From the NCBI RefSeq assembly GCF_021246445.1, contig NZ_JAJQXW010000002.1, positions 496,001 to 560,000 of the forward strand: DNA of 64,000 nt, given 5' to 3'. The DNA comes from Rhabdothermincola salaria. Its GTDB lineage: Bacteria; Actinomycetota; Acidimicrobiia; Acidimicrobiales; Acidimicrobilacustridaceae. The notes beneath the pieces were generated by a model. The model searched no databases. It worked only from the letters and a program-made list of their open reading frames with translations, and was not told where the DNA came from. Positions 3,196 to 50,931 of the stretch are shown in pieces (positions within the stretch are counted from its first letter, which is position 1; each line of letters starts with the position of its first letter). The position numbers were made by a program, and so were the translations under genes.

Positions 3196-5931
3196 ATGAG
3201 CAGCGACGATGAGCCGACCCACCACGGCGGAGGGGTTGCCCTGCTGGGCCGCCACGTCGTGACGGCGGAGCTGGCCGCGGGATGGCAGCGCACGCAGGCG
3301 GGCGGCGGGCAGGTCGTCGTCGTCGTCGCCGATGCGGCGATGGGCAAGTCCAGCCTCCTGCGCTGGCTCCGGGCTCACATCGGTCCCGATGGGGGGACCG
3401 TCGTGGAGGTGGTTGGGCGCGGCGGCGACCTCGCCCGTCCGCTGTCGTCGTTGGGTGAGCTCCTGGGGCGACTCCCGGACGCCGATCCCTTCGTCGCCCG
3501 CCTGGACGCGGTCGACGAGGTCGATCCGATCGTCGCCGGCCACGTCCTGCGCGAGGCGCTCGAGAGCGCGGCGCGCCTCCGACCGTTGGTTGTGCTGGTG
3601 GACGACGTCCACGACATGGACCCGGCCAGTCGCACGGCGGTGAACCTGGCCCTGAGGGGCGCCGTCGCCCCATGCCTGCTGGCCGTGGCGGCCGGCCGAC
3701 CCACCGACGCGGTGATGGCCTTTGCCGAGGGCTTCCGGACCCTCCGAGTGGAGGGCTTGGAGGATGCCGACGCCCGCCGGTTGCTGCTGGCATCGGCATC
3801 GACGCAGGTGGCCGATGCGGTCCTGGTGCGCCTCCTGGAGGTCTCGCAGGGGAACCCCTTGGCCTTGCGGTCCCTGCCCGACCACCTCGAGCCGGGACAC
3901 CTCGACGGCACGCAGCTCCTTCCCGAGCCGATCCCGGTGGCGGGCGACCTCCGCGATGCCTTCGAGCGACCGCTCGCCTCGCTCACCCCTCCGGCGCGTG
4001 AGCTGATCGAGCTGGCGGCCGTGAGCGCCGACGGGTCGATGGCGGTCATCGGGGCAGCCGTGCCCGGATCGATCGACGAGCTCGTGGCCGAGGTGGAGGC
4101 CGCCGGTCTCGGACACCTCGACGACGGTCGCCTCGTGTTCACCCACCCGCTGGTGCGTTCCGCGGCGGTGGTGGCGATGTCGCGGCGCCGTCGCCGAGAG
4201 CTGAACGGTCGCCTGGCGGAGGTCGCGCAGATCCCGGTCGAGACCCGTCTGCTGCACCGGGCGCACAGCATCCTCGGCCCGGACGAGGTGCTGGTCGACG
4301 CACTCGAGGACGCGGCGCGGCGCCAACGGGCTCGCGGAGGGGCCGAGGGCGCCGCCCGTCTCCTCGAGCGAGCCGTCGCCCTCTCGGGCGACGCCGACCG
4401 GTGCCAGAGGATGCGCATCGACTCCGCCGACGTGCTCGCCGTGTCCGGCAGCCACCTCGCGGCGCGCCGTCAGCTCGAGACCGTTCACGACGGGCCCGAG
4501 GACAGGGTCGGGGCGGCGCGGTGGCGGGCGATGGCCTCGATCCGGCTGGCCCGCATCGAGGCGTTGAACGGCGATCCGCTCGGCGCCTGGCAGCGGCTGC
4601 GGGAGTGCGTGGCGGTCGCCCCGGAGGCCGAGGTCGGGGTCGTCCACTCCACGATGGCCGTTCCGCTGGGGATGCTGGGCCTGGTCCGCGAGATCGAGGT
4701 CCAGGCCGCGCTCGCCATCGAGCACACCGAGCCCGGGACGGTGCCCCGCCACGTGGCGGACGTGGTGCACGCCCACGCCGTCGGAGCGACGGCGGAGGGT
4801 CGTGGTCGGCACCTCGTGGAGGCCCTCCCCGAGATCGACCTGCTGGACGCGCTCGACCACGATCCTCAGCTGGGCCTTCACCTCGGTCGCTCGTTCGGTC
4901 TGGCCGAGCGGATCGACGACGGCGTCGAGGCGCTGACGGCGCTGGCTGCCCGGGGCCGGGGTGAGCGGGCCCGGGCCTCGCTGGCCATGACCTACGGCAC
5001 CTTGGGCGAGCTGCACGTCCGGGGTTGCCGCTACGACGAGGCGATCGCCAACCTCGACGAGGCGTTGGTGCTGAGCCTGGCGACCGGGCAGCGGGCGTTC
5101 GCGCCGTTCTGGTTCGCGCTCAGGGCCCGGGTTCGCTCCGTGCGCGGGGACCACGACGGGGCCAAGGCCGACCTCGACGCCGGTCTGGGCATCGCCGACG
5201 AGCTCACCCTCCTGGGGGCGCGGTACTTCCTCCTGGGGGCGGCAGGGATGGACGCCCTCACCCGGGACGCCCCGGCCGAGGCGGTCGGGTTCCTCGAGGA
5301 GTGCCGCTTCTTCGAGAACGCTGGTGGGGTCCTGTCCCCCAACCTCGGACGGTGGCGCCCCGACCTGGTGAGCGCCCACCTGGCACGCGGTGACGACGAC
5401 CTGGCGTCGGAGGTGCTGGGGCCGCTGACCGACGCCGCAGCTGCGCCGGGGGCGAGCCGATGGACGCGTGGTTCGGCCGCATGGTCGGCCGGCTTGGTCG
5501 CTGCCCGCCGAGACCCGGTCGCGGGTGACCGGCTGCTGCAGGAGGCGGTCGAGATCCTCGACCCCGTGGCCGACTGCTTCGACCGCGCTCGTGCGCTGCT
5601 CGACCTGGCCCGGCTCCGGAGTCGTCGGGGTACGGCGGCCTCCGAGGAGGTGGCGGCGGAAGCCCGCTACGCCTTCCGTCGCCTCGGCTCGGTCCCCTGG
5701 GAGGACAAGGTCGCCGTCCATCGGCGAGCCGATGGTGCCGGCGGGATCGCGGAGCTGAGCCCGGCGGAGCTGCGGGTGCTGTCGGCGGTCAGCCGCGGGG
5801 CCACCAACCAGCAGATCGCGGTGCAGCTGGGGGTGAGCCCCAAGACGGTGGCCAACCACCTCTCGGCGATCTACCGGAAGCTGTCGGTGTCGTCGAGGAC
5901 CGAAGCCGCACACCGCTATCTCGACCGCTGA
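3196..5931 (+). CDS. LAL-type regulator: N-terminal AAA/STAND ATPase, helical linker, C-terminal LuxR HTH (copy A); alternative start 3157
   Basis: Walker A ADAAMGKS, Walker B VLVDDVHDMD, SQGNPLAL, FTHPLVRSA, C-terminal LSPAELRVL...GATNQQIAVQLGVSPKTVANHLSAIYRKLSVSSR. Confidence 0.92.
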   Translation: MSSDDEPTHHGGGVALLGRHVVTAELAAGWQRTQAGGGQVVVVVADAAMGKSSLLRWLRAHIGPDGGTVVEVVGRGGDLARPLSSLGELLGRLPDADPFVARLDAVDEVDPIVAGHVLREALESAARLRPLVVLVDDVHDMDPASRTAVNLALRGAVAPCLLAVAAGRPTDAVMAFAEGFRTLRVEGLEDADARRLLLASASTQVADAVLVRLLEVSQGNPLALRSLPDHLEPGHLDGTQLLPEPIPVAGDLRDAFERPLASLTPPARELIELAAVSADGSMAVIGAAVPGSIDELVAEVEAAGLGHLDDGRLVFTHPLVRSAAVVAMSRRRRRELNGRLAEVAQIPVETRLLHRAHSILGPDEVLVDALEDAARRQRARGGAEGAARLLERAVALSGDADRCQRMRIDSADVLAVSGSHLAARRQLETVHDGPEDRVGAARWRAMASIRLARIEALNGDPLGAWQRLRECVAVAPEAEVGVVHSTMAVPLGMLGLVREIEVQAALAIEHTEPGTVPRHVADVVHAHAVGATAEGRGRHLVEALPEIDLLDALDHDPQLGLHLGRSFGLAERIDDGVEALTALAARGRGERARASLAMTYGTLGELHVRGCRYDEAIANLDEALVLSLATGQRAFAPFWFALRARVRSVRGDHDGAKADLDAGLGIADELTLLGARYFLLGAAGMDALTRDAPAEAVGFLEECRFFENAGGVLSPNLGRWRPDLVSAHLARGDDDLASEVLGPLTDAAAAPGASRWTRGSAAWSAGLVAARRDPVAGDRLLQEAVEILDPVADCFDRARALLDLARLRSRRGTAASEEVAAEARYAFRRLGSVPWEDKVAVHRRADGAGGIAELSPAELRVLSAVSRGATNQQIAVQLGVSPKTVANHLSAIYRKLSVSSRTEAAHRYLDR

Positions 5932-6014: not shown

Positions 6015-6059
6015 TAGGTGATATGTCCTACTGACCGGGTCGAGCGCGCTCCGTAGCTT
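6015..6059 (+). promoter_or_regulatory. Putative operator palindrome + sigma70-type promoter of giant protein A
   Basis: TAGG-TGATATGT-CCTA (6015-6030) abuts -35 CTGACC (6031-6036), 17-bp spacer, -10 TAGCTT (6054-6059), 8 nt to GTG at 6068; same geometry at 40502-40554. Confidence 0.65.
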
Positions 6060-6067: not shown

Positions 6068-9000
6068 GTGGAGATCCTGGGCGGAGAAGGACTGATCGCA
6101 CGCGCACCGAGAGGGCGGGTGCGACTCTGGTGGGCGGTGGCCATGGCGGTGGTGGTGGCCGCGGCCGCGACCGGGGTGGCGGCGATCGTCGGCGCCGACG
6201 AACCGGTGTGGGACGCCGAGGACGTGCTGGTCGTCGCGGCGGTCGACGTCGACACCACGAGCGGGTCGCGAGCGGTGAGCGTGACGTGGCCGACCCCCGG
6301 GGGCACGATCGACGGCTTCGAGCTGCTCCGCGACGGTGCCGTCGTGGCCACGGCCGGCGGTGATGCGCGCGCGCTGGTCGATCCTGCCGCGCCCGAGGGC
6401 GGAGACATGGCCTACTCGGTGCGGGCCATGGCCGAGGGGAGGGAGCTGGCCGAGCTCCGAGGCCCGGAGGTCCGGATCACGGCGGACACCCTGGACTGCA
6501 CCATCACCTGGACCGGTGCCGCCGGCGACGGGTGGGGTGACGATCGGAACTGGGCTCCCGTGCTGGTCGATGCCAAGGGGGATCCGACCCTGCGCAGCCC
6601 CGGGCCCGCCGACGCGGCGTGCGTCGAGGCCAACCACAACCTGCCGATCAGCATCTCGGAGAAGGAGCCGGCCGTGGGTTCGCTCGCCGCTCCGGCTGGA
6701 TCGGCCGCGGCCGGGCCGTTGCGCATGGTCGACGGCGGCGGGCTCGAGGTGCTGGGGTCCTTCGACGCGCGGAACCTCCGGATCGATGGCGGGGACCTGG
6801 CGTTGCGGGCCGGCGGCGTGATCAGGGCGACCTCGACGGTGGACCTGTCGTTGCGGGGTGGCTCGCTCGACATCACCGGCACCCTGGCGGTGACCAACGG
6901 CCTGAACGGCGACGTCCGGGTGTACGACGGGGCCGTCGTCTCTCTGCACGGCGGTCGACTCCTCGTCGACGAGCTCACCATCGGGCCCCCTCGGATCGGC
7001 CTGCCCGCCGACGCCTCGCTCGTGGCCAGCGGGGGCCACGTGCTCGAGGCCTCGCGCACCTCCGTCAACGGTCGAGGCGATCTGTCCGTGGCCGGCGACG
7101 GCGGGACGCTACGCACTGGTTCGCTCGACGTGTGGCGCAACGACGGCGACGGGCGCACCTCCGTGGCCTGGGCGGTCGGTGGCGTGGGCGATGCGCTGAC
7201 CCCGGACTCGATCCGCTCGCGTGCCGACAACGAGCTCGTCCTCGGCGACCTGCTGGCGATCGACGCCGGTGACGACGTCCTCGAGGGCGTCGAGCTCGAC
7301 GTCGAGGGCCGTCTCGTGCTGGGCGAGAAGGTCGGGGCCATCGGCGACCTGACCCTCCAGGGCCCTGACGCCGAGCTCCTCACCGGCGGGTCGGCGGTAC
7401 CGAACGCCGGCGTCGAGCACGTGGACCGTCTGAACGTGTGGTCCACTTCGACGGTCTGGCCGGGCGACCTGTCCAGTGAAGCGATCAGCCTCGACGACGC
7501 CGAGCTGTCCGTGCAGGGCGCTCTCACCGACGGGCCGGCGGACGGGTTCGAGCTGGAGATGCGCAGATCCACGCTGCGGGTCGGCGACCCGCTGGTGATC
7601 CCGCCCGGGCGGGAGCTGGCGCTGTACTTCGGGCCCTCGGTCTTCGACGGCGACCTCGTGCTCGACGGTCGGCTCCCTCTCGACCAGGCGATCGACGGGA
7701 CCGAGTTCCCCTCGCTCACCGTCTCGGGTGATGTCCAGGTCCGCGACGGGGGCGAGATCACCCTGCTCCACGGCCAGGACGCACTCGAGGTCCAGGGCCG
7801 TCTCACCGTCGACCCGGATGGCGTGATCAGCGTGTGGCTGGACGAGGCACCCGATGGCCCCGTGCTGCTCGTGCCCGCCGGTGGGGCGGTGGCCGATCCT
7901 CGATCGATCGCGCTCACCGGTCCGGGCGCCGACAAGGCCGTCGTCGAGGTGCGCAACGATGGTCTCTGGGCCGTGCCCGGCGACCCCGGCGACCCCGGCG
8001 ACCCGGGCGACCCGGGTGATCCGGGTGATCCGGGTGATCCGGGTGATCCGGGTGATCCGGGTGATCCGGGTGATCCGGGTGATCCGGGTGAGAAGTGCAC
8101 CGAGGCCCTCCCCGGGGTCCTGGGCCTGTCGTTGACCGGGTGCTGGAGCGACCGCGGCGAGGGCGTCTACGCCGCCGGCGTGGCGGTGGCCCCGGACGGG
8201 GATCTGCCCGGCATCGGAGGGATCGTGTTCGAGCCCTCGGCGGGGGTCGAGCTCCTGCTCGACCTGTCCGAGCCCACCCAGCCTCGCCTCCGTTCGGTGC
8301 TGTCGGCCGACGAGTCCCAGCTCGGCGACACCTCGGTCACGGTCCCGCTGATCGGGCGCGACGGCGGCGACGTGGATGGTGCGTCGTTCCCCGCCTCCGA
8401 CGGCTCGTCCATCGATCTGGGGACCTTCGGCGTCGACTGGCGCCTGGACCAGCCCATCGACCTCGCCTCCGTCGCCGACCTGTTCGGGCTCCCGCTGCCG
8501 GACGGCATGACCCTCCAGGTCGTGAACGACGCCTGGCTCCTCGGCGCGCCGATCCCGTTGCCGGCGGTGGTCGGTGGCCAGACGGCGGACTTCGCGGCGG
8601 TGATCAGCGACCTGGGCATCGATCCGGCCGACCTCTCCCTCGAGGGGATCGAGGACGCCGTGTTCGCCGAGCTGGCCGCCCTCCAGGACCTGGCCCTCAC
8701 CTGGGCGGGCGACACCACCTGGCGCATCGTCTCGGCCATCGGCGATCCCTTCGCCATCGACGGTGAGCTCGACTACGACGGGGACCTGACGGCGGGCACC
8801 CTGGTCGTGTCCGGCCTGAGCGTGGCCGGCCTCGGTGATCCCGACGCCACCGTCACCCTCGAGTTCGACCGGTCCCAGGGCCGGTGGTCCGGCCAGTACG
8901 AGGTGGCCGACGGCCAGAGGGTGGACGTCGAGCTCGACACCGACGGCACCTCGCTGGTGGGCGGCACCGTGGCCCTCGCCGACGTCGCGTTCGGCCTGGC

Positions 9001-12000
9001 CACCGTCGAGGACTTCGAGATGACCTACCGGGCGGGCGTCTGGGCGTTGACGGGGACGGTGACCCACCTCGGGGGCACCGACAGCCTCATGGGGGCCCTG
9101 GTGACCGACGAGGGCGAGATCGTGAACCTGGAGGTGACGTTGACGGCCTCGTACGGTCCGTTCGGGCGCCTCGACCCGTTCTCGCTGAGCTACGCGGGTG
9201 AGGACGCCACCCTCCCGGACGGCAGCCCGGCGCCGGAGGGGGCCGAGGTCTACGCGGTGGCCGCCACGATGCACAGCGGCGGCGAGACGAGCTCGGTGGA
9301 CGGGTTCATGGCCTTCGACGGCGGCGTGGTGCTCGCCGACCTCTCGGTCGACGTGGCCCTGGGCGAGCTGGCGAGCCTCGACGGTCGCCTCTCGTACGAC
9401 CCGGCCAAGTCCCCGGACTGGGTGCTCGGGGGCACCGACGGCTCGGAGATGGCCACCCTGACCTGCGGCACGGGCCAGAGCGAGATCGGCGGCGCGCTGC
9501 GACTCGACGACGGGGCGCCGGTGGCCGGCCGGCTGCGGGCCACCGGCCTGTGCGTCGGCGTGGCTCAGCTCACCGAGATCGAGCTCCTGGTGGCACCCGA
9601 CGAGGGCGGCACCGCCTTCGACCTCACGGCCCGGGTGGCCCAGGCGACCGACGAGGACGCGGTGGTCACCGGCCGTCTCCACTTCGTGGAGGGACGCATC
9701 GAGGAAGGCGCGCTGGCCATCCCCGAGACGACCATCGAGGGCCTCGTCACCCTCCCCGAGACCTTCCTCGCCGTCACCCGCGACGGGGACGTCGAGCGCT
9801 GGGAAGCCACGATCCGGGGCGGGCCCCTGCGTGAGCTGGAGCTGGCCTTCGACGACGGCGCCCTGGTCGCCGGCGACCTGTGGCTCGCACCCGAGGACGA
9901 CGACGGACCCCCCGTGGTCTCGTGGGGCGACTGGCTCGCGGTGGAGTCGCTGCGGCTCACGTTCGACGGGGACGCCGGGACGTGGGCGGTCGAGGGGAAC
10001 CTGGCCGAGCCCGACGCCGAGATCACCGGCGAGCTGGTGGTCGACGACGGACGGGTGCTGAGCGGCGCCCTGCAGATCGACGGGGTCGAGATCGGCCCCC
10101 TCGCCCAGGTCGACCTCACCCTCACCGTCGACGCGGTGGTGGACCGCCGCCTGGCCCTCACCGGAGAGGTGCGCGGCAAGGCCTTCGAAGGCGATCGGGC
10201 CGTCAGCGGCGAGCTGGTGTTCACCTCCGGCGGGCAGCTCGAGTCCGGGTTCCTGAGCCTGTCGGCGCTGCCCATCGGTGAGCTGGCCACCGTGGAAGAC
10301 GTCGAGATCGCCTTCACCCTCGGCACCTCGTGGGCCCTGTCCGGGACGATCCTCGACGCCAACGGGAAGCTCCTCAACGACGTGGAGGGCCTGCTCGAGT
10401 ACGACGAGGGCTTCCTGACGGCCGCCGAGCTGGAGGTGGGCACCCTCTCGCTGGGCGTGGCCACCATCGACGACCTCGAGCTCGAGCTGACCCGCTCGCA
10501 GGACGACACCAACCGCACCGGTTCCTACGCCATCTCCGGGCTGGTCGACGTCCCCGCCGTCACCACCCCGGACAAGGGCCTCGAAGCCGGCCCGCCCGAG
10601 CCGGTGACCGGCTCGCTCACCATGGTCGACGGCCGCATCGAGTCCATGCAGCTCGGCGTGCCCATGCTCCAGCTCGGCGGCCTGGCCTACCTCGAGGACC
10701 TGGAGCTGGGCTACGACCACGACGAGGCCGACGACCTCGCAACCGTCTCCGGCGCCGCCGGGCTCGTCACCGCCGGCGACCTCCCACGCGTCGATGCCAG
10801 CCTCGGGCTCACCTTCCGTGACGGTCGCATCGTCGACGCCACGGTCGAGGCCGACGGCCTGCCCCTCGGTGGTCTCTTCAAGCTCTCCGACCTGAGCCTC
10901 ACCACCGATGCGGCGCTCACCGAGTGCCCGGGACTCGAGCGCGAGGTCCCCGACCCCGCTCGTCCCGAGCTGCGCCTCTGGGCGGTGAGCGCCGTCGTCG
11001 GCCAGGACGAGGTGCCGGTGACGGGCTGCCTGGGCATCGAGGACGGCACCCTCGTCGCCGCCCAGCTCGGCCTCGGTTCGGTGGAGCTCACCGAGCTCTT
11101 CCGCTTCGAGGACCTGCTCCTCACCTACGAGGGCTTGGAACAGGCGACGCTGCCCACCACGGAGGGTGGGGAGGCCGTGCTCGACCGCACCGTGCTCGCC
11201 CTCTCCGGCACCGTGATCACCGGCGAGAGCGACACCCGCACGTTCGCCGGCCAGGCGGCGGTCATGGACGGCGGTCTCGAGTCGCTCGAGCTCTCCATGT
11301 CGACGTTGCCGTTGGTCGGCGGCGTCGAGCTGCGCCAGCTCCGCATCGCCTACGACCAGAGCGGCCGCTGGGACGGCGAGAGCGACACCACCTTCGCCCT
11401 CAGCGGCCAGGCCGTGCACGGGGGCGGCACCACCGCGGTGTCGGGCAGCTTCAGCCTGGCGCCCGAAGGCCGTGGTGGCCGGGTGCAGGCCGCCTCGATC
11501 GACATCCACGAGCTGCCGGTCGGGCCCCTCCTGCTCAACCGCTTCGGACTCGTCTACACCGCGGACGAGGGTGGGTCGGGCTGGGCCATCGGCGGTTCGG
11601 TGACCGTTCCCGGCGGCGAGACCTTCGCCATCGACGGTGAGGCGGTCGTGGCCGAGGGCCGGCTGGTGTCGGCCACCATGACCATCCCGCGCCTGCCGAT
11701 CTACGACCAGCTCCAGCTCGCCGACATGGAGTTCGCCTACTCCTTCGACGACAAGACCGGTCTCACCAGCTGGTCGGGATCGGGGGAGGTGGAGGGCTTC
11801 GGCAGCGGGAAGGGGCCCGCGGCCAGCGTGGATCTGGTCATCGACGGGCAGGGCCGTCTGGTCGACGGCGAGATCCTCGCCGAGCGCGTCGAGTGGGACG
11901 GGTTGCTCACCCTCGAGCAGTTCCGGCTCATCACCGCCGACACCGACGACGGGCGGATCTGGGATGTGTCCGCCGCAGTGCTCTCGCCCCAGGGGGCATC

Positions 12001-18235: not shown

Positions 18236-18379
18236 CGCCCATCCACCCTAACGCTCATTTGGTCGCGCTGCTGAGGCGCGGCCCGGGCGCGGCCGTGTCG
18301 TCAGGACGGTGGCACGACGCCCCGGTTCGTGATCGGATGCCCAGGGGCCGTCGGGGGACGGCCAGCGAAGGGGGACCAC

Positions 18380-20794: not shown

Positions 20795-20882
20795 GCCGGC
20801 CCGGCCGTCGGTGTGCCCGACGTCATGGGGTTAGGTCCCGGCCTCCGGGAAGGGTCGGCGGGACCGTGGGGTTGCAGGACCC

Positions 20883-21161: not shown

Positions 21162-21165
21162 CGGA

Positions 21166-22694: not shown

Positions 22695-22747
22695 CATCTT
22701 TCCGTAGGCGCCCATGGGTCGGTGGTGCCAGGGAGACGACGGTTGCG

Positions 22748-33573: not shown

Positions 33574-33596
33574 GCGACTGACCGGCTTCCACCACG

Positions 33597-33625
33597 ACCG
33601 CCGCCCCCGTCGAGGGGGCGGCGGT
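33597..33625. terminator. Bidirectional terminator hairpin between convergent genes
   Basis: ACCGCCGCCCCC-GTCGA-GGGGGCGGCGGT: perfect 12-bp stem. Confidence 0.75.
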
Positions 33626-33642
33626 GTCGCGTTCGGGAGAGG

Positions 33643-34032
33643 TCACTGCACGACGATCTCGCCGGTCATGCCCTCGCCGCTGTGGATGGCGCAGAAGTAG
33701 GGATGGGTGCCGGGCTCGTCGAAGGTGACGTCCACGCTCTCGCCCTGGGCGAGATCGTGGTCGAAGTCGTCGGCGGGCTCGTCCCTCGTCCCTGCGGTCA
33801 CCGTGTGGGTGGTGTCGTCGAGGTTCTCGAAGGTGACGGTGGTGCCCGCCTCCACCTCCAGCGGGTCGGGGCTGAAGATGAAGGTGTCGATGGTGACCTC
33901 TGCGACGGTCGTCGCCGAGTCGTCACCGGTGGTGGCGTCGGTGGAGGTGGCGTCATCGGATGCGCACCCACCGAGGCCGATGGCCGCGACCAGGAAGGTC
34001 GCGGCCATCGAACGCTTCAGCAGCGGCGTCAT
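33643..34032 (-). CDS. Cupredoxin (plastocyanin/azurin-like) lipoprotein
   Basis: Lipobox LGGC; FSPDPLEVEAGTTVTFENLD..THTVT; type-1 Cu ligands YFCAIH...MTGEIVV; TGATG-coupled to upstream gene. Confidence 0.92.
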   Translation of the reverse strand: MTPLLKRSMAATFLVAAIGLGGCASDDATSTDATTGDDSATTVAEVTIDTFIFSPDPLEVEAGTTVTFENLDDTTHTVTAGTRDEPADDFDHDLAQGESVDVTFDEPGTHPYFCAIHSGEGMTGEIVVQ

Positions 34033-40447: not shown

Positions 40448-40501
40448 GGTCCCGACTCGACGAGGAGGCTCCCCGGTCTCCGCCGACGGGGGGGTGGAGG
40501 A

Positions 40502-40546
40502 AGGGAAGAATGTCCCCATGACCGCGGCGGAGCGCGTCCGTACCAT
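40502..40546 (+). promoter_or_regulatory. Putative operator palindrome + sigma70-type promoter of giant protein B
   Basis: AGGG-AAGAATGT-CCCC (40502-40517) abuts -35 ATGACC (40518-40523), 17-bp spacer, -10 TACCAT (40541-40546), 8 nt to GTG at 40555. Confidence 0.65.
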
Positions 40547-40554
40547 CCCGTCAC

Positions 40555-43500: not shown

Positions 43501-46500
43501 GCCACCGTCGAGGACCTGATGCTGTCGTGGGCTGGCTCCAGCTGGGCGGTGAGCGGCTCGGTCACCACCCTCGACGGTGGCGGCACCCTCAGCGGCACGC
43601 TCGACGTCGACGACGGCGAGGTGCGCACCGTCGAGCTCACCCTCGTGGCCTCCCTCGGGCCGCTGGGGCGAGTCGAACCGTTCGCTTTCAGCTACGTGGC
43701 CGACGCCGAGGTGCTCCCCGACGGCACCGAGCTGGCCGAGGGCTCCGACCTCTACCTCCTCGACGGCACCGTGCACAGCGGTGGTGAGACCAGCACGCTG
43801 ACCGGCTACCTCGTGATGCAGGGCGGGCAGACCGCGCGGGCCGAGCTCGACGCCGACCTCGCCCTGGGCGAGCTCGCCGGCCTCGACGGCCTGCTCTCCT
43901 TCGATCCGGCCGAGAGCCCCGACTGGCTCCTCACCGGTCGTGACGGCGCGCGCAGCGCCACTCTCACCTGTGGGGGCGGGCAGAGCGAGATCTTCGGATC
44001 GCTGCGCCTGTCCGCCGGCGGTCCCACCGCCGGTCGGCTCGAAGCCGACGGCCTCTGCTTCGGGTTCGCCCAGCTCACCTCCGTGGTGCTCGACATCGCC
44101 CCCGAGGAAGACGGGACCGCCTTCGACCTCACGGCCCGACTGGCCCAGCAGAGCGACGACGACGCCGAGGTGACCGGCCGCCTCCACCTCGTCGAGGGGC
44201 GCATCGAGGAGGCGGTCCTGGTGACCCCCGAGGCCACCCTCGAGGGCCTGGTCACCGTTCCGGCCGCCCAGCTGACCCTCACCCGGGAAGGCGACGTCGA
44301 GCGCTGGGAGGCCCGCATCGACGCCGGCTCCGGCGCGCTGCGCCACCTCGAGCTGGCCTGGCGTGACGGCAGCCTCGTGGGGGCCGAGGTGCACCTCGGC
44401 CCCGACGGCGAGGACGGGTCCCCCGTGGCCTCCTGGGGTTGGCTCAGCGTGGCCGAGCTCCACCTCGTGTACGACGGGGTGGCCGAGGAGTGGCTCGTCG
44501 ACGGCCGCTTGGCCACCCCCGACGTGGCCGTGACCGGGGAGCTCGATCTGCTCGACGGCCGCCTCGTCTCCGGTGAGCTGCACGTGGACGGGGCCCAGCT
44601 CGGCCCCATCGCCACCATGGACCTCACCATGACCGTGGACGCCACCATCGACCGCCGGCTGGCTCTGAGCGGCTCGCTGGTCGGGCCCGCCTTCGACGGG
44701 GCCCGCGCCCTCGACGGCGAGCTGGTGTTCACCCCGACCGGGGCGCTCGACTCCGGTCGCCTCGGCATCCCGCTGCTCCCGGTCGGCGAGCTGGCCACCA
44801 TCACCGACCTCGAGATGGCGTTCGAGGTCGGTGGGCTGTGGTCCCTCGCCGGTTCCATCGTCGGCGGCGACGGCAGGCCGCTGAACACGGTGGCCGGCAG
44901 CCTGGAGGTCGACGACGGCGAAGTGGTCGCGGCCCACCTCGCCCTCGGTCGCCTCTCACTCGGCCCCGCGTCGATCGAGGACCTCGAGCTGTCCCTCCTG
45001 CGCCGAACCGGCGACGACAACCGCACCGGCCAGTGGGCGGTCTCGGGCGTCGTCGACGCCCCGGTCACCATCGAACCGGACAGGGACCCCACGGCCGATC
45101 CCGAACCGGTGGCCGGCCGGCTCACGCTGCGCGATGGGCGGGTGACCGGCTTCGAGATGCAGGTGCCGTTCCTCGAGATCGGTGGGCTGGCCTACCTGCG
45201 CGACCTGGAGCTCGGCTACTCCTACGACGCCGATGACGACCTGGCCACGGTGTCCGGCGGCGCCGAGCTGGCCACCGCCGACGACCTCGGGCCGGTCGAT
45301 GCCTCGTTCTCGGTGTCGTTGCGCGACGGGCGCATCGTCGACGCGTCGGTGGCCGCCGACGGGCTGCCGCTCGGAGGCCTGTTCACGCTCACCGACCTGC
45401 TGCTCACCACCGACGCCGTGGACCCGCTCACCACGTGCCCGGGCCTCGAGGGCCCGGTGCCGGACCCGGACCGGCCCGACCTGCGCATCTGGGCCCTGAG
45501 CGCCACGGTCGGCCAGGACCAGGTGCCGGTGTCGGGGTGCGTCGGCATCGACGACGGCGTCCTCGTCGCCGCCGACATCCAACTCGGCTCGGTGCAGCTC
45601 ACCGATCTCTTCCGCTTCGAGGACGTCGGCCTCACCTACGACTCCCTCGAGCAGGTCCCCCTCGAGGGGACCGACCGCGTCCTCACCCGCACGACGCTCG
45701 ACGTGTCCGCCACCGTGATCGCCGGCACCAACGACCCCCTCGTGGTGGGTGGTCAGGCCACCGTCATGGACGGAGGGCTCGAGAGCTTCGGCGTGGGTAT
45801 CGGGACCCTCCCGCTCGTCGGCGGCGTCGAGCTGCGCCAGCTCCGGGTGGACTACGCCCAGCCCGGTCGTTGGGACGGCGAGAGCGACACCACCTTCGCC
45901 CTCAGCGGCGCGGCCCTCCACGAGGGCGGCACCACCGCGGTGGAGGGCTCGTTCCGCTTGGCCGCCGCCGGCCTGGGCGGGCGGGTGCTCGAGGCGTCGG
46001 TCGAGATCCTCGACCTCCCCGTCGGCCCCATGACCCTGGACCGCTTCGCCGTCGAGTACCTCGACGACGACGGTGCCACCTCGTGGGGCATCGGTGGCGA
46101 GGTCACCGTGGCCGACGGCGAGACCTACGGCATCGACGGCGCCGCCGCCGTCGCCGACGGCCGGCTCCAGTCCGCCTCGCTCACCATCCCGCGCCTGCCG
46201 ATCTACGACCAGCTGCTGTTGCAGGACCTCTCGTTCGCCTACGACCTCGACCCCGACAGCGGGTCGGCCCAGTGGTCCGGCACCGGCAGCGTGGCCGGAA
46301 CCCGAGGCGGAGGCGGCGGCGCCCCCACCGCTTCGGTCGACCTGCTCATCGATGACCAAGGGCGCCTCGTCGACGGCGAGATCACCGCCGGCAACGTGGC
46401 GTGGGGTGGGCTGTTCGCGCTCGAGGACTTCACCCTCACGACCACCGCCGGTCCTCCGGGCGACCGGTTCTGGACCGCAGCGGCGTCGGTGTCGGTGAGC

Positions 46501-49500
46501 GGCGGCGAGCCCGGCAGCCTCTCCGGACTGCTCCGTCTCGAGGGCGGCCAGGTCGCCGAAGGAGGCCTCGCCATCTCCGGCGTGCAGGTGGCAGGCCTCG
46601 TGACCATCGACGAGCTCGAGCTCGCCGTGGACATCCGCGACGAACAGCTCGGCTGGACCGGCGCCGCCCAGGTGACGAGCGGGGGCACCACCATCTCGGG
46701 GCAGGTGGCCATGAGCTGGGAGGAGGGCACCCTGGTGGCGGCCGACCTCGGGTTGGGCACGGTCCCGCTCAGCCAGGGACTCGCCCTCGAGAGCTTCCAG
46801 CTGACCTACCCGGCCACGGTCTCGGGCCTCGACGGCTGGGCGGCCGGTGGCTCGGTCCGTCACGAGGGCGGGCTCTCCGCGCTGTCGGGCTCGCTGGCCT
46901 TCGTCGACGGCCGCCCCACCCGCGGGTCGCTCACCGCCGAGGGCGTGCAGTTCGGTCCGTTGGCCCTCGACCAGTTCGCCCTCGCCGTCACCGAGGACGA
47001 GCTCGAATCCTGTGGCGCCACCGTCCCGGCCTCGGCCAGCGGCGCGGTCACCTACGCCCTGTCCGCCACGGTCGGCCACGGCGACGGCACCACCGCGTCG
47101 CTGGGTGGGCACTTCACCATCGACGGCGGCCGCCTCACCGGCGGCTCGGCCTGCGGCAGTGGCATCCGCATCGCCGAGATCGCCGTGCTCGACGACGCCC
47201 ACTTCGCCTACACGGGCCCCTCGCCCGGCGATCCGGTCGAGCGGTGGAGTGGCGGGGCCAGCCTGCGCAACACCGACGGGGCCCTCGCCTCGGCGTCGGT
47301 GGCCTTCGGCCTCGACGAGGGACGCCTGGACTCGTTCGCCCTCGAAGCCGGCGGTCTTCGCCTCGGCGACATCCTCGACCTGCGCGACCTCGAGATCACC
47401 TACGACGGCTCTCGCCAGGCCAGCGAGTGGTTCGTCGCCGCCGACGTGGCCCGCCCGGGCGACGACGGCACCCAGCTGACGGGCGCCCTCATCGTCGACC
47501 GGGGTGTGGCCGTGGCCGGGGGGTTCCAGGTGGCCAACCTCCCGCTGGGCAACCTCACCACCCTCGACGACCTCTCCTTCGAGTACGTGGGACGCCGGGC
47601 GCCCCAGTCCCTCCCGCAGGTGGGTGAGGGCACCGGGTTCGCCCTGACCGGCACGCCCGAGTGCTCCTCCATCCCCAGCAGTGCCATCAACGTCCCCACC
47701 GGACCGCCCACCACGGAGGGCTCCGAGGCCTACTTCGCGGCGTCGGCCAGCGTCACCCACAAGGGCGACACCTACGCCGCTCGCGGCTCGTTGGGTCTCG
47801 ACGACGGCCGCCTCTCGGCGTTCGACCTCACGATCGCCTGCCTGCCCGTCGGCGACATGGTGCGCCTCGAGGACGTCCGCCTCGCCCTCACCCAGGAGGG
47901 ATCCTTCCGACTCGGTGGTCGCCTCGGGCTGGAGGACGAGCTGGTCACCTTCTACGGGTCCATGACCTTCGACGACGGCCGGCTGGTGGGCGGGGGCCTG
48001 AAGCTGGGCGGCGTGCCCTTCGGTCCCGTCACCCTCGAGCTGCTCGAGTTCTCCCTCGGCCAGGACCTCGACGGCACCTCGACCTGGGGTGCGGGCCTGG
48101 CGGTGAGCGGCCCCGACGGCAACACCATCGGGGGCAGCGGATCGGTCACCGTCGACGACGGGCGCATCGTGGCCGGATCGGTGACGGTGTCGCAGCTGCC
48201 CGTGTTCGGGCTGGTCACCATCTCCGATCTCCAACTGGCCTTCGCCGACACCGCCGAGGGGCTCGAGCTCAGCGGCTCGGGCGGGGTCAAGACCATCGGT
48301 GGGCAGACCTCCAGCATGGATGTGGAGCTCGAGTTCGAACGGGGGCGTCTCGTCGGGGGCTCGCTGGCGGCGGACAACCTGCTGTTCTTCGACGCACTGC
48401 CGATCAAGGCCTTCTCGATCGGCTTCAGCCCCGACGGTGGCTGGGAGGGCTCGGTGAGCACCGCCCTCGACGACCTCCCGAGCGGTCCCTCGATCGTGGT
48501 CGCCATCGAGACCGATGGCCAGCGCCTCACCGGCGGGGCCCTCGGCTTCGACGCCGATGGGGACGGCAACCCGGACATGCCCACCGGCAACAACGTCCCG
48601 GCCTCGGGCAACGGCACCCTGGCGGTCTTTCCCCTCAAGGCCTTCTACATCAGCTACTGCCCCGACGGCTCCACCCGGGAGGGCTGCGACGGCTTCGGCG
48701 ACGTCTGGGAGGGCGCCCTCGCCATCGAGCTGCCCACCCCCAACCCCGTCGGCATCGCCGGGTCGGTCACCATCCGCGACAACCGCCTGGTCGGGGCGTC
48801 GCTGTCGGCGACGGGGCTCGGCATCCCGCTCTTCACCGGGGTCACCCTCGACAGCGTGGGGGCCGGGTTCTCCAAGGACCCGAACCTGATCATGACCGGC
48901 TCGATGGGTGCGAGGGTGGGGCCGCCGGCGGTGCCCTTCATGCAGCTCGACGGCTCGCTGCAGTTTTCCGAGCAGCCCGACTGGGACCCGTCGACCCCCT
49001 ACGACGAGTACCAGGCCCAGTGGCTCCGCTTCCTGTTGCGGGCCAACGCCACCTTCTTCGGTCTGCCCGTCACCGCTGGCGGCTACATCGACATCGACAC
49101 CCGGGGCTACGCCGGGTTCGGTGGCCGGGTGAGCGCCAAGCCGATCAAGCAGATCGAGATCCTCGGCATGGTCCGGGCCGCGGTGTTCAACGCCAACAAC
49201 ATGGACCTCACCAACCCGGACACCGGTCAGCCCCTCACCGGGGTCGGCTTCCAGGCCGAGGGCACGGTGGAGGTCACCGCCTTCGGCCTCGGGCCCGCCG
49301 GCGGCACCGTGTTGATCAACAACGTCGGCCTCGGCGCCTGTGCCTACCTCGGCCAGAACCACCGGATCGGCGGCGGCTTCTACTGGGACCGGCCCGTCCG
49401 GTCGTTGCGCTTCCGCTGCGACATGGGTCGCTACGAGATCGTCGGCGTGTTCAACGACGACGTCTTCGATCCCGCAGCCGGGGTGTCGCTCGCGTCCACC

Positions 49501-50931
49501 GCCGACCTGCCGGAGGGACGGTCGGGGGTCGCCTCCGGGCAGGTCACCCACCGCTTCGAGGTCGGGCCCGGTGAACCCCTCATCGGCATCCAGATCTTCA
49601 CCGACGACGGCGTGCCCGACTACGCCGTCATCGCCCCGGACGGCACCCGCTACGAGAACCCGACGACCGGCGACTTCGACCGCGAGGGCCACCTGCTGGT
49701 CCGCGACGACGAAGGTCAGCACGTCCTCATCGAGGACCCCCAGGAAGGCATCTGGCTCCTCGAGCGGCGCGACGGCTCGCCGATGGCCGCCGAGGTGGTG
49801 ACCTCCGCGGTGCTCCCGGACGTCGAGGTCGACACCCAGCTCACCCAGGAGGACGACCGGGTGCGGGTGGGATACAGCGTCGGTCGCATCGACGGCCAAG
49901 AGGTGCTGTTCATCGAGCGCAGCTCCGACCCCGACGACGAGTACCAGGCGGTCGTCGGGGGCATCAAGGCCGAGGGTGGCGCTCTGGGCCCGTCCAGCAC
50001 CCAGCCGGGGGAGCCTCGGGGCATGGGCATCGCCTCGGTGGACGGCTACGAGGAGGGGACCATCGAGTTCACGCCCGGGGGTTCCCCTGCGGCCTCCGAG
50101 CGGGAGCTGGTGGCGGTGGTGATGCAGGACGGCATCCCCCGCGAGACGATCGTGGTGGACACCTTCACCGCCCCCGCCGCCGATCCGGCCTCGGCCCCCA
50201 CCGGCCTCCAGGTGACCGAGGTCGAGGGCGGGGCGCTCGTGCGCTGGTCGCCGCCGGCCGACGACGGCGGTCGCCAGATCGTCGGCTACCGCATCCAGTC
50301 CGACCTGGGCCTCAGCGTGGGCGCCGGCCCCGACGGGACCGAGGTGGTCCTGCCCATCCCGGCCATGGCCCCGGGCAAGGAGGTGCCCGTGGTGGTCCAG
50401 GCCGTCACCGGCGCCGGGCACGGTGCCCCCGTGGTGGGGTCGTTCGTGGCCACCCAGACCACCGACCTCCAGTACATCCCGCTGGGCGCCACCGGAGGTC
50501 CCGGCGACCCGACCGATCCGACCGATCCCACCGATCCGACCGATCCGACCGATCCGACCGATCCGACCGATCCGACCGATCCGACCGATCCGACCGATCC
50601 GACCGATCCGACCGATCCGGGTGGTCCAGCCGACCCGACGGATCCGGGGGGCCCCACGGAGCCGGGCCCGACCGATCCGGGCGACCCGGGCGATCCGGGC
50701 GTCCGGGACGACCCCGGTCCGACCGACCCGGCCCAGCCCGTGGCGCCGGGCCCCGACGTCGGATCGACCGGAGCCCAGGACGACACCGGTGAGGGCCGCG
50801 AACAAGCCGGAACGCTTGCCTACACCGGTTCGTCGGACCCCACGCCGCTCATCCTGGTCGGGGTGCTGCTGTTGTCGCTCGGGGCCGGCGTGGCCATGGT
50901 CGGCCTCCGCCGCGGCCGCACCGAGGAGTGA
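40555..50931 (+). CDS. Giant (3458 aa) secreted, sortase-anchored repetitive beta-rich surface protein with FN3 domain (copy B)
   Basis: Same architecture as 6068-16447; C-terminal LAYTG + TM helix + RRGR tail (LAXTG class-E sortase-type signal). Confidence 0.9.
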   Translation: MEPLDPARDLTARARGARARLWWAFAALAAVGVLSLVAGVAGGSRSTWGEGDVPTVAAIEVGTDGSRAVRVTWPTPSATPETIELVRVVGITTTVVATGPGDVRELVDPSVPEGQQVAYQVRAIMEGQQAGLLRGPVVIVGADAVRCTIAWTGAAGDAWGDVRNWAPVLVDGQGDPTPRLPQASDAACIHARHNLPVTVAGSQPSVGSLDAPAGITEAVLSMASGDLEVLGEFDAQRVHMDGGTLALRSGGRILASAGVNLALQGGTLELGGTLQVSNGNNGEVRLDDGADVAVVGGRLLVDDLRIGPPTAGLPADATLLAAGGHVLEVDDARINGRVDLVVGDGGATLGARDLDVYRNGGDGRVTIGWSVAGRGTSATPATIRVRDTSELNLTDMAALGGGDDHLEDVALEVEGPLRFDEPVGSIDRLTLTGAAAQVSSGGAPTPYAGLAEVGHLTAFSATAAWPGDLAVDRLEVYGSELLVAGTLGDRPGGGFALTTFESVLGSSTPLVLPVDAALDMGFGESVFEGDLVVEGVLPLDRLVDFTQPPFLRVRGDVTVRPGGEVAIVEGKGGLEVLGDLSLDDGSTLRATLETALAADEERRLVAAGSVEGDVRSVVLQGPGADVADAELRGDGIWVVGSTGDPGGPGGPGGPGDPGDPGDPGGPGDPGDPGDPGDPECTRDLPSVVGLGLQGCWADRGDGTYVAGIVAAPDGALPGIGGIVIEPSASAALLLDLRDPAAPTLRSVLRADEAQLGEASVTVPILGAGNDGAAVEGTSGPASGPASIDLGTFGIDWDLAEIIDLDAVGALLGVPVPDGVKLWVEQGAWRLAASLGLPDVLGGGRADLVAPIAPDGLDPADLGVEGIAEAVLAELGGLRDLALTWVGDTTWAIVSAVGDPFAIDGQVTYDGGLSAGTLVVSGLTVAGMGDPDAEVTLTFDRTEGTWSGLYVVPSGERLSVELTTDGTSLVAGSVELAGLELGVATVEDLMLSWAGSSWAVSGSVTTLDGGGTLSGTLDVDDGEVRTVELTLVASLGPLGRVEPFAFSYVADAEVLPDGTELAEGSDLYLLDGTVHSGGETSTLTGYLVMQGGQTARAELDADLALGELAGLDGLLSFDPAESPDWLLTGRDGARSATLTCGGGQSEIFGSLRLSAGGPTAGRLEADGLCFGFAQLTSVVLDIAPEEDGTAFDLTARLAQQSDDDAEVTGRLHLVEGRIEEAVLVTPEATLEGLVTVPAAQLTLTREGDVERWEARIDAGSGALRHLELAWRDGSLVGAEVHLGPDGEDGSPVASWGWLSVAELHLVYDGVAEEWLVDGRLATPDVAVTGELDLLDGRLVSGELHVDGAQLGPIATMDLTMTVDATIDRRLALSGSLVGPAFDGARALDGELVFTPTGALDSGRLGIPLLPVGELATITDLEMAFEVGGLWSLAGSIVGGDGRPLNTVAGSLEVDDGEVVAAHLALGRLSLGPASIEDLELSLLRRTGDDNRTGQWAVSGVVDAPVTIEPDRDPTADPEPVAGRLTLRDGRVTGFEMQVPFLEIGGLAYLRDLELGYSYDADDDLATVSGGAELATADDLGPVDASFSVSLRDGRIVDASVAADGLPLGGLFTLTDLLLTTDAVDPLTTCPGLEGPVPDPDRPDLRIWALSATVGQDQVPVSGCVGIDDGVLVAADIQLGSVQLTDLFRFEDVGLTYDSLEQVPLEGTDRVLTRTTLDVSATVIAGTNDPLVVGGQATVMDGGLESFGVGIGTLPLVGGVELRQLRVDYAQPGRWDGESDTTFALSGAALHEGGTTAVEGSFRLAAAGLGGRVLEASVEILDLPVGPMTLDRFAVEYLDDDGATSWGIGGEVTVADGETYGIDGAAAVADGRLQSASLTIPRLPIYDQLLLQDLSFAYDLDPDSGSAQWSGTGSVAGTRGGGGGAPTASVDLLIDDQGRLVDGEITAGNVAWGGLFALEDFTLTTTAGPPGDRFWTAAASVSVSGGEPGSLSGLLRLEGGQVAEGGLAISGVQVAGLVTIDELELAVDIRDEQLGWTGAAQVTSGGTTISGQVAMSWEEGTLVAADLGLGTVPLSQGLALESFQLTYPATVSGLDGWAAGGSVRHEGGLSALSGSLAFVDGRPTRGSLTAEGVQFGPLALDQFALAVTEDELESCGATVPASASGAVTYALSATVGHGDGTTASLGGHFTIDGGRLTGGSACGSGIRIAEIAVLDDAHFAYTGPSPGDPVERWSGGASLRNTDGALASASVAFGLDEGRLDSFALEAGGLRLGDILDLRDLEITYDGSRQASEWFVAADVARPGDDGTQLTGALIVDRGVAVAGGFQVANLPLGNLTTLDDLSFEYVGRRAPQSLPQVGEGTGFALTGTPECSSIPSSAINVPTGPPTTEGSEAYFAASASVTHKGDTYAARGSLGLDDGRLSAFDLTIACLPVGDMVRLEDVRLALTQEGSFRLGGRLGLEDELVTFYGSMTFDDGRLVGGGLKLGGVPFGPVTLELLEFSLGQDLDGTSTWGAGLAVSGPDGNTIGGSGSVTVDDGRIVAGSVTVSQLPVFGLVTISDLQLAFADTAEGLELSGSGGVKTIGGQTSSMDVELEFERGRLVGGSLAADNLLFFDALPIKAFSIGFSPDGGWEGSVSTALDDLPSGPSIVVAIETDGQRLTGGALGFDADGDGNPDMPTGNNVPASGNGTLAVFPLKAFYISYCPDGSTREGCDGFGDVWEGALAIELPTPNPVGIAGSVTIRDNRLVGASLSATGLGIPLFTGVTLDSVGAGFSKDPNLIMTGSMGARVGPPAVPFMQLDGSLQFSEQPDWDPSTPYDEYQAQWLRFLLRANATFFGLPVTAGGYIDIDTRGYAGFGGRVSAKPIKQIEILGMVRAAVFNANNMDLTNPDTGQPLTGVGFQAEGTVEVTAFGLGPAGGTVLINNVGLGACAYLGQNHRIGGGFYWDRPVRSLRFRCDMGRYEIVGVFNDDVFDPAAGVSLASTADLPEGRSGVASGQVTHRFEVGPGEPLIGIQIFTDDGVPDYAVIAPDGTRYENPTTGDFDREGHLLVRDDEGQHVLIEDPQEGIWLLERRDGSPMAAEVVTSAVLPDVEVDTQLTQEDDRVRVGYSVGRIDGQEVLFIERSSDPDDEYQAVVGGIKAEGGALGPSSTQPGEPRGMGIASVDGYEEGTIEFTPGGSPAASERELVAVVMQDGIPRETIVVDTFTAPAADPASAPTGLQVTEVEGGALVRWSPPADDGGRQIVGYRIQSDLGLSVGAGPDGTEVVLPIPAMAPGKEVPVVVQAVTGAGHGAPVVGSFVATQTTDLQYIPLGATGGPGDPTDPTDPTDPTDPTDPTDPTDPTDPTDPTDPTDPTDPGGPADPTDPGGPTEPGPTDPGDPGDPGVRDDPGPTDPAQPVAPGPDVGSTGAQDDTGEGREQAGTLAYTGSSDPTPLILVGVLLLSLGAGVAMVGLRRGRTEE
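42481..42588 (+). repeat. Intragenic 9-bp tandem repeat encoding (G[D/G]P)12
   Basis: GGTGATCCG / GGCGGTCCG units read directly. Confidence 0.95.
50506..50619 (+). repeat. Intragenic 9-bp tandem repeat encoding (DPT)12DP
   Basis: GATCCGACC units read directly. Confidence 0.95.

Follow-up and report, generated by a model that had tools for sequence, protein, structure and literature searches.

The 64,000-nucleotide (nt) stretch of Rhabdothermincola salaria DNA analysed here (contig NZ_JAJQXW010000002.1, positions 496,001 to 560,000; hereafter the window) carries two copies of a two-gene cassette, at 3196-16447 and 37703-50931. Each consists of a regulator gene (R1 or R2) followed on the same strand by the gene for a giant, putatively wall-anchored surface protein (G1 or G2). 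The source genome (G000) comprises 3.9 Mb in 7 contigs, and a tblastn search of the whole of it found exactly two copies of each gene, both in these cassettes. A first-pass annotation, made from the sequence of the window, had described the same gene pair twice in the same orientation, with unrelated metabolic genes in between and with giants of 3459 and 3458 amino acids (aa); the open reading frames (ORFs), their lengths and their neighbours are as described (Table 1), and the genes that flank and separate the cassettes encode amidohydrolases, a CoA-transferase, WS/DGAT, an ABC transporter, an ABC1 kinase and other unrelated proteins. The regulator starts chosen in that annotation, 3196 and 37703, fit the point from which R1 and R2 can be aligned. 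The G+C content is even across the window (70-76%), in which Rfam gave 0 matches.

Over their full length, G1 and G2 are identical at 1933 of 3445 residues (56%), with 101 gap positions, and R1 and R2 at 549 of 905 residues (61%). At the DNA level, 3511-16177 and 38045-50670 align as a single colinear block of 12,894 nt, intergenic region included, with 68.6% identity, and no exact 50-mer is common to the two cassettes. Because of this combination, we ruled out both an assembly repeat and a recent gene conversion. The cassettes are an old duplication of a two-gene unit, in which both reading frames have remained intact, as the first-pass annotation had proposed.

The two regulators were classified from profile matches and motifs. 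Both contain AAA_16 (E 4.2e-11 in R1, 44.1 bits against a cut-off of 32.6; E 4.5e-18 in R2) and GerE (E 2.7e-16 and 9.5e-15, respectively). Walker A (AMGKS) and Walker B (VLVDDVHD) are present in R1, and GKS/GKST and hhhhDD motifs are readable in both proteins. The middle region gives TPR_12 and TPR_2 matches below the cut-off (18-20 bits against 27-30), and the NCBIfam MalT model matches weakly, in the helix-turn-helix (HTH) region only. We read R1 and R2 as having the LAL/MalT architecture, with an N-terminal AAA_16 P-loop domain, a putatively helical or TPR-like middle and a C-terminal GerE/LuxR HTH, in line with the earlier STAND/LuxR (LAL) assignment. They resemble known LAL/MalT regulators in the two terminal domains, probably in the middle region, and in their length of 910-960 aa; unlike them, they adjoin a single gene for a giant surface protein and no catabolic or biosynthetic cluster. 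Together with an orthologue from the related genome G012, they form a clade of their own, apart from 22 Mycobacteriales-type LAL clusters, found in Nocardia and Mycolicibacterium, that make up the sister clade (43-49% identity over 96-97% of the length). R1 had no match in the plasmid collection, and at E ≤ 1e-80 in a 400-genome sample of the phylum, with the two best candidates per genome scored, it was found in G000 alone.

Table 1. Coordinates of the cassette genes and of their predicted or candidate features in the window
Feature	Position	Strand	Basis
R1, LAL-type STAND regulator	3196..5931 (longest ORF from 3157)	+	Pfam, 61% identity to R2
Conserved 15-nt element (TATGTCCTACTGACC)	6022..6036	+	32 nt upstream of G1 GTG
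TAGCTT, TANNNT-type hexamer	6054-6059	+	8 nt before G1 GTG
G1, putative giant surface protein, 3459 aa	6068..16447	+	ORF list
FN3-like module and head of G1, preceded by a signal-like N-terminus (residues 1-44)	6068..7978	+	sequence reading
(GDP)12 putative linker of G1	7979..8086	+	triplet run; Pfam Collagen 32.9 bits
G1 predicted beta-sheet 'belt', residues ~1081-2940	9308..14887	+	AF2 models, internal repeat matches
Two Ig/FN3-like sandwiches (~2989-3229) and FN3-like module (~3235-3325) of G1	15035..16042	+	AF2, VIA, profile
DPT-type Pro-rich acidic stalk of G1, 16 triplets	16007..16150	+	sequence reading
G1 sorting-signal-like end: LVVTG, hydrophobic segment, WWRRD tail	16325..16447	+	sequence reading
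R2, paralogue of R1	37703..40447 (longest ORF from 37571)	+	Pfam, alignment, tree
Conserved element (AATGTCCCCATGACC)	40509..40523	+	32 nt upstream of G2 GTG
TACCAT, TANNNT-type hexamer	40541-40546	+	8 nt before G2 GTG
G2, putative giant surface protein, 3458 aa, colinear with G1	40555..50931	+	ORF list, alignment
G2 sorting-signal-like end: LAYTG (50815-50829), 20-residue hydrophobic stretch, RRGR tail	within 40555..50931	+	sequence reading

Architecture and predicted fold of the giants

Read by eye, each giant begins with an Arg-rich stretch and, behind it, some 24 hydrophobic residues, which may be a Sec signal peptide or a signal anchor. The head of G1 carries the motif CTITWTG..W.D.RNWAP and Gly-rich repeats. 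The (GxP)12 runs and the DPT stalk noticed in the first-pass annotation are present in both giants, the former at residues 638 (G1) and 643 (G2), the latter as D/P/T-type runs of 16 and 19 triplets. Of the Pfam families, Collagen alone matched the giants, as a low-complexity hit to the (GDP)12 run of G1, and G2 had no match; six fragments of G1 searched against Pfam at E ≤ 10 added nothing in the body, and NCBIfam gave no family. A collagen triple helix was rejected as a family trait, in that the run has 12 triplets only, the Pfam match passes in G1 and not in G2, and none of the 10 further giants inspected contains a GxP run. Both this run and the long DPT stalk are confined to G1 and G2; I read the (GDP)12 run as a linker. 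The FN3 domain named in the earlier annotation is supported indirectly: Pfam fn3 does not match G1 or G2, but it does match the aligned region of their homologues, and the family profile matches solved FN3 chains (E 2.5e-13). Among sequences in the PDB, the head has no relatives and the C-terminal profile has FN3 only.

The C-terminal sorting signal claimed for both giants is found in G2 in a recognisable form and in G1 as the variant LVVTG. Among 12 aligned giants, eight end with L[PAV]xTG (five LPxTG, two LAxTG, namely LAYTG in G2 and LARTG in P0005, and one LVVTG), the G012 giant ends with FN3 and SLH (SLH E 1.7e-15), P0006 has three CWB2 domains, and P0007 and P0012 have no recognised anchor. 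The strongest argument that the C-terminus is wall-proximal and the head distal is that these interchangeable wall-attachment modules occur at the same end. The genome of R. salaria also contains one sortase gene (PF04203, G000:C3:326807-327205, E 8.2e-29, over the cut-off). This exchange of anchors, together with the sortase gene, agrees with the proposal that the giants are wall-anchored, probably by the C-terminus.

How widespread is this protein? A word-indexed search of 5.8 billion clusters, in which 2226 candidates were scored, gave one protein at E ≤ 0.001, P0005 (4242 aa, 33% identity), which has four copies of the head. An exhaustive HMMER search with G1 residues 2030-3229 against 1.84 billion representatives gave 413 matches at E ≤ 1e-3 and 13 at E ≤ 1e-30, among them about nine full-length giants of 2884-4319 aa and 31-36% identity. 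Ten clusters were looked up; four had names, all 'hypothetical protein', and one came from an Ilumatobacter metagenome-assembled genome (MAG) and one from an Acidimicrobiales MAG. Queried with a 1200-aa segment, the giant was found in 2 of 41 relatives and 2 of 61 family genomes (G000 and G012 in both cases), in 1 of 401 class genomes (G000 alone) and in 2 of 401 order genomes (G000 and G538). A pattern scan of 185,579 species gave one full-length locus, L019, in an Acidimicrobiia MAG, which is not counted apart from the G012 locus L011, and one head-only locus in a Gemmatimonadaceae MAG, where the homologue is 27% identical over G1 residues 13-636; the scan could have missed relatives, because 8 out of 10 distant homologues that were checked lack its patterns. 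A metagenome scan added one 4.8-kb contig with the 3′ end of a giant and a thiolase gene. The giant family is very rare, with some 10 full-length homologues among 1.8 billion representatives. The four same-genus genomes G001-G004 (completeness 75-100%) have neither the giant nor a regulator orthologue, yet in R. salaria the identity between the paralogues is only 56-61% and their G+C content is that of the genome as a whole, which implies either an ancient acquisition followed by repeated losses or a transfer from one related lineage to another.

The body between the linker and the C-terminal domains had been called a very long beta-repeat region. It has a period of about 60 residues, or four strands, in which G.L.F.DGR...G.L is followed by L.LG.L..LEDL.L.Y and then by W.L.G.V, and internal matches of the C-terminal half of G1 extend back to residue 1081. 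We modelled two fragments with AlphaFold2 (AF2), using alignments of 21 rows for G1 1960-2660 and 74 rows for G1 2640-3230. The first model (mean predicted local distance difference test score, pLDDT, 85.7; predicted template-modelling score 0.61) is made up of 50 beta-strands in succession; it has no helix and a single loop, some 40 residues long. In the second (pLDDT 85.2), the meander continues for about 15 long strands to residue ~2939 and is followed by two Ig/FN3-like sandwiches. The sandwiches match FN3/Ig domains in the VIA comparison at Z ~9 and a root-mean-square deviation (rmsd) of 2.5-3 Å, whereas Foldseek gave for this C-terminal model only weak multi-Ig matches, with template-modelling (TM) scores of at most 0.17. 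The earlier description as a beta-repeat body needs correction: the body is predicted to be one unbroken antiparallel meander and no string of domains. Extrapolated from 50 strands in 701 residues to the belt at 1081-2940, about 1,860-1,900 residues long, the sheet would have about 130 strands and, with the standard spacing of ~0.48 nm per strand, would measure about 60 nm if flat. Across the 43 modelled strands that are 6 residues or longer, alternate positions have mean Kyte-Doolittle values of +1.2 on one face and -0.4 on the other. A query of the ESM Atlas with G1 residues 1301-2660 matched unnamed clusters with a best score of 0.89, below the useful range, and a two-copy prediction of G1 1960-2339 scored 0.00, giving no verdict and hence evidence neither way.

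What known structures does the model resemble? A library-wide alignment placed 22-strand outer-membrane barrels first, led by the SusC-like BT1762 (Z 11.2, rmsd 4.9 Å, 228 residues aligned) and then FecA and maltoporin; over these barrels (Z 10-11, rmsd ~5 Å, ~220 aligned), model residues 48-357 superpose with 218-228 aligned residues, rmsd 4.9-5.7 Å and Z 10.4-11.2, and the C-terminal module also matches barrels at Z 10-11 in VIA. By Foldseek E-value, Rhs cores and teneurins came first (4e-6, TM 0.08-0.15), with LptDE at TM 0.21, and the TamB taco (5vtg) aligned at Z 7.2 and rmsd 3.3 Å over 90 residues. These matches could be taken to mean that the ribbon spirals, at about 22 strands per turn, into a hollow tube, a Rhs/teneurin-like cocoon or a TamB/LptD-like groove that encloses cargo or conducts it across the envelope. 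The likeness to Rhs/YD/teneurin proteins, to TamB/AsmA/LptD and to 22-strand barrels lies in long antiparallel hairpin sheets with strong curvature; in contrast, the TM scores to these systems are 0.08-0.21, the sheet of the giant runs far past the strands of one barrel, and its anchors (sortase signal, SLH, CWB2) are of the wall-attached type, unlike those of outer-membrane barrels. Membership of the Rhs/YD family was rejected because the six fragments have no RHS_repeat signature at E ≤ 10 and NCBIfam no match, and because the TM scores are low; AsmA/DUF490 (TamB) has no Pfam match on the giants at that threshold, and no toxin-like or protease module follows the sheet. Moreover, the barrel-like curl of an isolated amphipathic fragment may reflect the predictor burying a hydrophobic face, and Z values of 10-11 for repeat-like sheets may represent 'a common arrangement'. 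We give a tube or shell little credence.

When the top 1000 Foldseek matches were re-aligned, the beta-belt of apolipoprotein B-100 (apoB-100), the protein of human low-density lipoprotein, came clearly first, with Z 14.1 for 9coo_A (353 residues aligned, rmsd 11.2 Å) and Z 14.0 for 9bde_A (595 of its 701-residue query aligned, rmsd 21.8 Å), ahead of the next entries at 10.7. According to the structural report (PMC11839476), the amphipathic sheet of the apoB belt runs without a break through 1,774 residues; its 120 strands average 11 residues, and the belt is about 4 nm in width and about 61 nm in length. The predicted body of the giant shares with it a long, continuous, amphipathic antiparallel sheet of strands of about 11 residues, and apoB-100 is its top structural match. 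There are, however, several differences: the identity is 7-8% at an rmsd of 11-22 Å, the giants lack an LLTP/vitellogenin-type N-terminal domain (no Pfam match), the modelled part of the giant has one long loop where apoB has nine large inserts, and the giant is a bacterial, extracellular, putatively wall-tethered protein for which lipid binding is hypothetical. Membership of the apoB/LLTP family was rejected for want of an LLTP domain and of sequence similarity, and the apoB belt is, as far as the models go, an analogue of the giant body and not a relative. One could go further and regard the giant as a bacterial functional analogue of apoB, with a wall-tethered belt of ~60 nm wrapping or coating a lipid or hydrophobic particle at the cell surface. 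Candidate cargoes would be droplets (wax ester, triacylglycerol or hydrocarbon), membrane vesicles or the lipid layer of a neighbouring cell, and synthesis of the belt would await a signal from a ligand-sensing STAND switch. Giant and STAND regulator would then make up an ancient module present across phyla, with exchangeable DNA-binding domains and wall anchors. We regard this proposal as unlikely.

A more conventional alternative is an ordinary fibrillar adhesin, in which the sheet is a rigid spacer, comparable to single-layer beta-sheet stalks, that projects the head and the hydrophobic face is buried by self-curling or by a partner chain; there would be no lipid role, and the regulator would still be in control. 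The giants are laid out like sortase-anchored fibrillar adhesins (SasG/Aap, Ebh), with a putative export signal, a distal region for binding, a long body, a Pro-rich segment that would span the wall and an LPXTG-type signal. Also in favour of an adhesin, OspA-type single-layer sheets match the body model at Z 8-9, and the hydrophobic contrast between the faces is modest. The head is probably a specific binder, since it is duplicated in P0005 and stands alone in another phylum, as would be expected of a binding module. Tandem-repeat spacer stalks, however, usually vary in copy number, whereas the body of the giants is one continuous, non-modular sheet that is colinear and of near-constant length in the 12 aligned giants, in which homologues are 30-59% identical. 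The counterpart of G1 1300-1960 has 637-668 residues in each of them, and that of G1 1960-2660 has 694-715 residues in 10 and about 950 in the other two. In addition, the best structural analogue is a lipid-wrapping belt, and no adhesin family of Pfam matches the giants; a full-length match to a characterised adhesin family was among the findings that the first-pass annotation had named as refuting its reading. We give a plain adhesin appreciable weight, well short of even. A third comparison can be made with the chaplins and other hydrophobic surface proteins that depend on class E sortases, which are likewise found in Actinomycetota, carry a LAxTG-type signal and are beta-rich and amphipathic. 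Chaplins are small and self-assemble from many subunits; the sheet of the giant, in contrast, would be a single polypeptide of ~3,460 aa, and we found no sequence relation.

Apart from the giants, a part of G1, residues ~2705-3120 (window 14180-15430), comprising the last ~15 strands and the Ig-like sandwiches, corresponds to a module that stands alone in hundreds of proteins (P0021-P0155). Its hosts are 500-1400 aa long, most of the 413 representatives at E ≤ 1e-3 cover only this module, and its fusion partners are PKD, FN3, Calx-beta, DUF5122 or PD40 propellers and Vgb_lyase/NHL domains. In none of 23 scanned proteins did the module itself match Pfam; although widespread, this extracellular module has no Pfam model.

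Relation of the regulator to the giant

Is each giant tied to its regulator? First, an orthologue of the regulator (E ≤ 1e-100) occurs in 2 of the 61 family genomes, the same two that have the giant; that of G012 has an E value of 1.5e-235 and 54% identity. Second, the giant tree has the topology ((G1,G2),G012g), with a Shimodaira-Hasegawa-like approximate likelihood ratio test (SH-aLRT) support of 100, and the 30-row regulator tree ((R1,R2),G012r), with support of 99 and 98, a 5-row tree being unresolved; the two topologies agree, as the first-pass annotation had suggested checking. Third, a conserved 15-nt element with the consensus AATGTCCyMMWGACC, with further conserved positions on either side, lies upstream of each giant. 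In G012 it stands upstream of the giant and also directly 3′ of the regulator, ahead of the first SLH-PD40 gene. At up to one mismatch there are three copies per genome in G000 and G012, two of the three at these sites, and 0 copies of the reversed control pattern; the extra one-mismatch copies, G000:C2:220024 and G012:C105:21686, have no flanking similarity and were treated as chance. Actinobacterial -10 elements follow the rule TANNNT, and by this rule TAGCTT, TACCAT and TAGGTT, located 8-9 nt before the GTG codons, would be -10 hexamers of a leaderless transcript, with the 15-nt element as a putative part of the promoter.

In G012, the regulator contig breaks off, and the giant contig starts, within paralogous SLH-PD40 genes (71-87% nt identity, without overlap). 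The gene order there is probably R-(SLH-PD40)n-giant, with the assembly broken by the tandem array. The genes themselves, for SLH plus a PD40 beta-propeller, stand in tandem in at least four copies (L018:12339-15593 and L011:15977-19571). Upstream of the G012 regulator lie genes for more SLH proteins, including one of 1361 aa with RCC1, FN3 and SLH.

In G538, the 5′ part of the giant gene is preceded by three divergent genes, for a 195-aa ORF, a 1044-aa protein with AAA_22, TPR and BTAD, and an 885-aa protein with Trans_reg_C and NB-ARC. The 1044-aa STAND protein has no similarity to R1; with a STAND protein of the Gemmatimonadaceae MAG, encoded divergently from the head-bearing gene there, it shares 34% identity over 814 aa (E 1e-79). 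These two loci, L049:2-5980 in G538 and L020:7517-10189 in the MAG, encode a MalT-like NTPase with a C-terminal winged HTH (wHTH)/BTAD region. Every locus with a readable upstream side thus has a STAND-class regulator at or near the giant, of two unrelated kinds, LAL in G000 and G012 and wHTH/BTAD in G538 and the Gemmatimonadaceae. On a different contig of G538 (C152; L050:2064-6440), the gene next after a LAL with 30% identity to R1, on the same strand, encodes a protein with a right-handed Beta_helix (E 1e-10) that may be secreted.

An apparent coupling of each giant to a STAND-type regulator is supported by the duplication of the unit, the congruent trees, the co-occurrence in 2 of 61 genomes, the shared element and the STAND regulators of G538 and the Gemmatimonadaceae. 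These observations favour the private regulator that the first-pass annotation had assigned to each giant; the partner is not always a LAL, since other lineages use wHTH/BTAD STAND regulators. In G012 the LAL gene is not directly adjacent. Could the adjacency nevertheless lack regulatory meaning, with R controlling other genes and merely copied along, and with the element serving as a signal unrelated to R? LAL regulators are known, in the parts of the literature that we consulted, mainly from catabolic and secondary-metabolite clusters; the distant LALs of G432 and G011, only 30-34% identical, adjoin metabolic genes; the G012 regulator is followed by SLH-PD40 genes and not by the giant; and the sister clade of the regulators comes from Mycobacteriales genera not found among the few named giant clusters. 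Such a lack of meaning would, however, leave the position of the element both after the G012 regulator and before the G012 giant to coincidence, as well as the congruent trees, the exact co-occurrence in 61 genomes and the recurrence of STAND-class regulators beside homologous giants in two further lineages, and we think it improbable.

The window has other features besides the cassettes. Genes of lipid and acyl-CoA metabolism are dense around the cassettes (window 18329-25396, 51018-53037 and 62946-63998), for a double CoA-transferase III, a WS/DGAT wax-ester synthase, a fusion of AMP-binding, PP-binding and Acyl_transf_3 domains, an epoxide hydrolase, an acyl-CoA thioesterase and an acyl-CoA dehydrogenase; this density may be ordinary for the lineage and was not used as evidence. 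Divergent from R2 lies a gene for an ABC1/UbiB-type atypical kinase with membrane segments (35556-37250, minus strand; ABC1 E 1.8e-60), which has no counterpart at the first cassette. A small CAP-domain gene (cysteine-rich secretory protein family) adjoins a cupredoxin/plastocyanin-like gene on the opposite strand (33097-34035). A 710-aa ORF with strong coding bias (29151-31283, minus strand) has no Pfam match at E ≤ 0.01. Finally, about 1.8 kb at 25400-27230 contain no ORF that passes the filter on third-codon-position G+C (GC3), and the AT skew dips to -0.19 at 24001-26000.

A proposed regulated surface fibre and its implications

Taking the cassettes as a whole, we favour, at somewhat better than even confidence, a STAND-regulated, wall-anchored beta-belt surface fibre. 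The LAL regulator, with its P-loop NTPase, putative helical sensor and LuxR HTH, would sense a ligand and then activate the giant's own promoter through AATGTCCyMMWGACC, which is placed where the -35 region would be, giving a leaderless or nearly leaderless transcript. The giant would be exported by the Sec pathway and its C-terminus tethered to the wall by a LAxTG-type sortase signal in G2 and the variant LVVTG in G1. From the wall outward, one would meet the Pro-rich acidic stalk, two or three Ig/FN3-like sandwiches and the ribbon of ~1,900 residues; beyond the ribbon, the (GDP)12 linker would carry the FN3-plus-head module at the distal tip. The ribbon would be a continuous antiparallel sheet of fixed length, with one face moderately hydrophobic and the other polar. 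An inducible surface fibre whose head binds a target is its most likely role, and the amphipathic ribbon may contact a hydrophobic phase, curl to bury its hydrophobic face or have that face covered by another chain; the barrel-like curvature of the fragment models hints at self-curling into a tube. The action of the regulator on the giant, its ligand, export, anchoring and the binding partner of the belt are all inferred.

Several points weigh against this fibre. Because consensus scans of both R-G intergenic regions gave neither a sigma-70-type promoter nor a terminator (0 sites, with an E. coli-type promoter consensus), a separate promoter of the giant is a reading of the TANNNT hexamer, and R and G may be co-transcribed. 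In G012, the regulator and the giant are on separate contigs with SLH-PD40 genes between them, so that their linkage is inferred. The independent lineages are few and related, namely G000, G012, G538 and one head-only locus, and the Nocardia and Mycolicibacterium of the regulator sister clade are absent from the 4 of 10 giant clusters that have names. As regards the fold, both belt models are of fragments (G1 1960-2660 and 2640-3230), the apoB and barrel matches, with large rmsd and 4-9% identity, represent a common arrangement and no homology, and the modest hydrophobic/polar contrast would also fit two-layer packing.

What might such a system mean? Regulated giant wall-anchored surface proteins are known, and the architecture of the body, if borne out by experiment, would be a first among bacteria; our literature search, made without naming the fold or the family, found no description of a LAL or STAND regulator in a pair with a giant surface protein. 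If the models hold, the giants represent a class of bacterial surface proteins in which a body of ~1,900 residues is a single amphipathic beta-sheet, so far documented at such a scale in apoB-100, and the family has no Pfam or NCBIfam model and is labelled only 'hypothetical protein'. The cassettes would provide a tractable, regulator-linked system for the export, folding and use of very large beta-sheets outside the cell, and they open the question of whether monoderm actinobacteria handle hydrophobic material by means of belt-like proteins. The STAND regulators beside the giants are of the LuxR type in one clade and of the wHTH/BTAD type in another, the latter conserved between Acidimicrobiia and Gemmatimonadota. 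If the coupling is true, the known targets of STAND switches would extend from metabolic clusters to single, costly surface structures, for which the conserved 15-nt element provides a candidate operator sequence.

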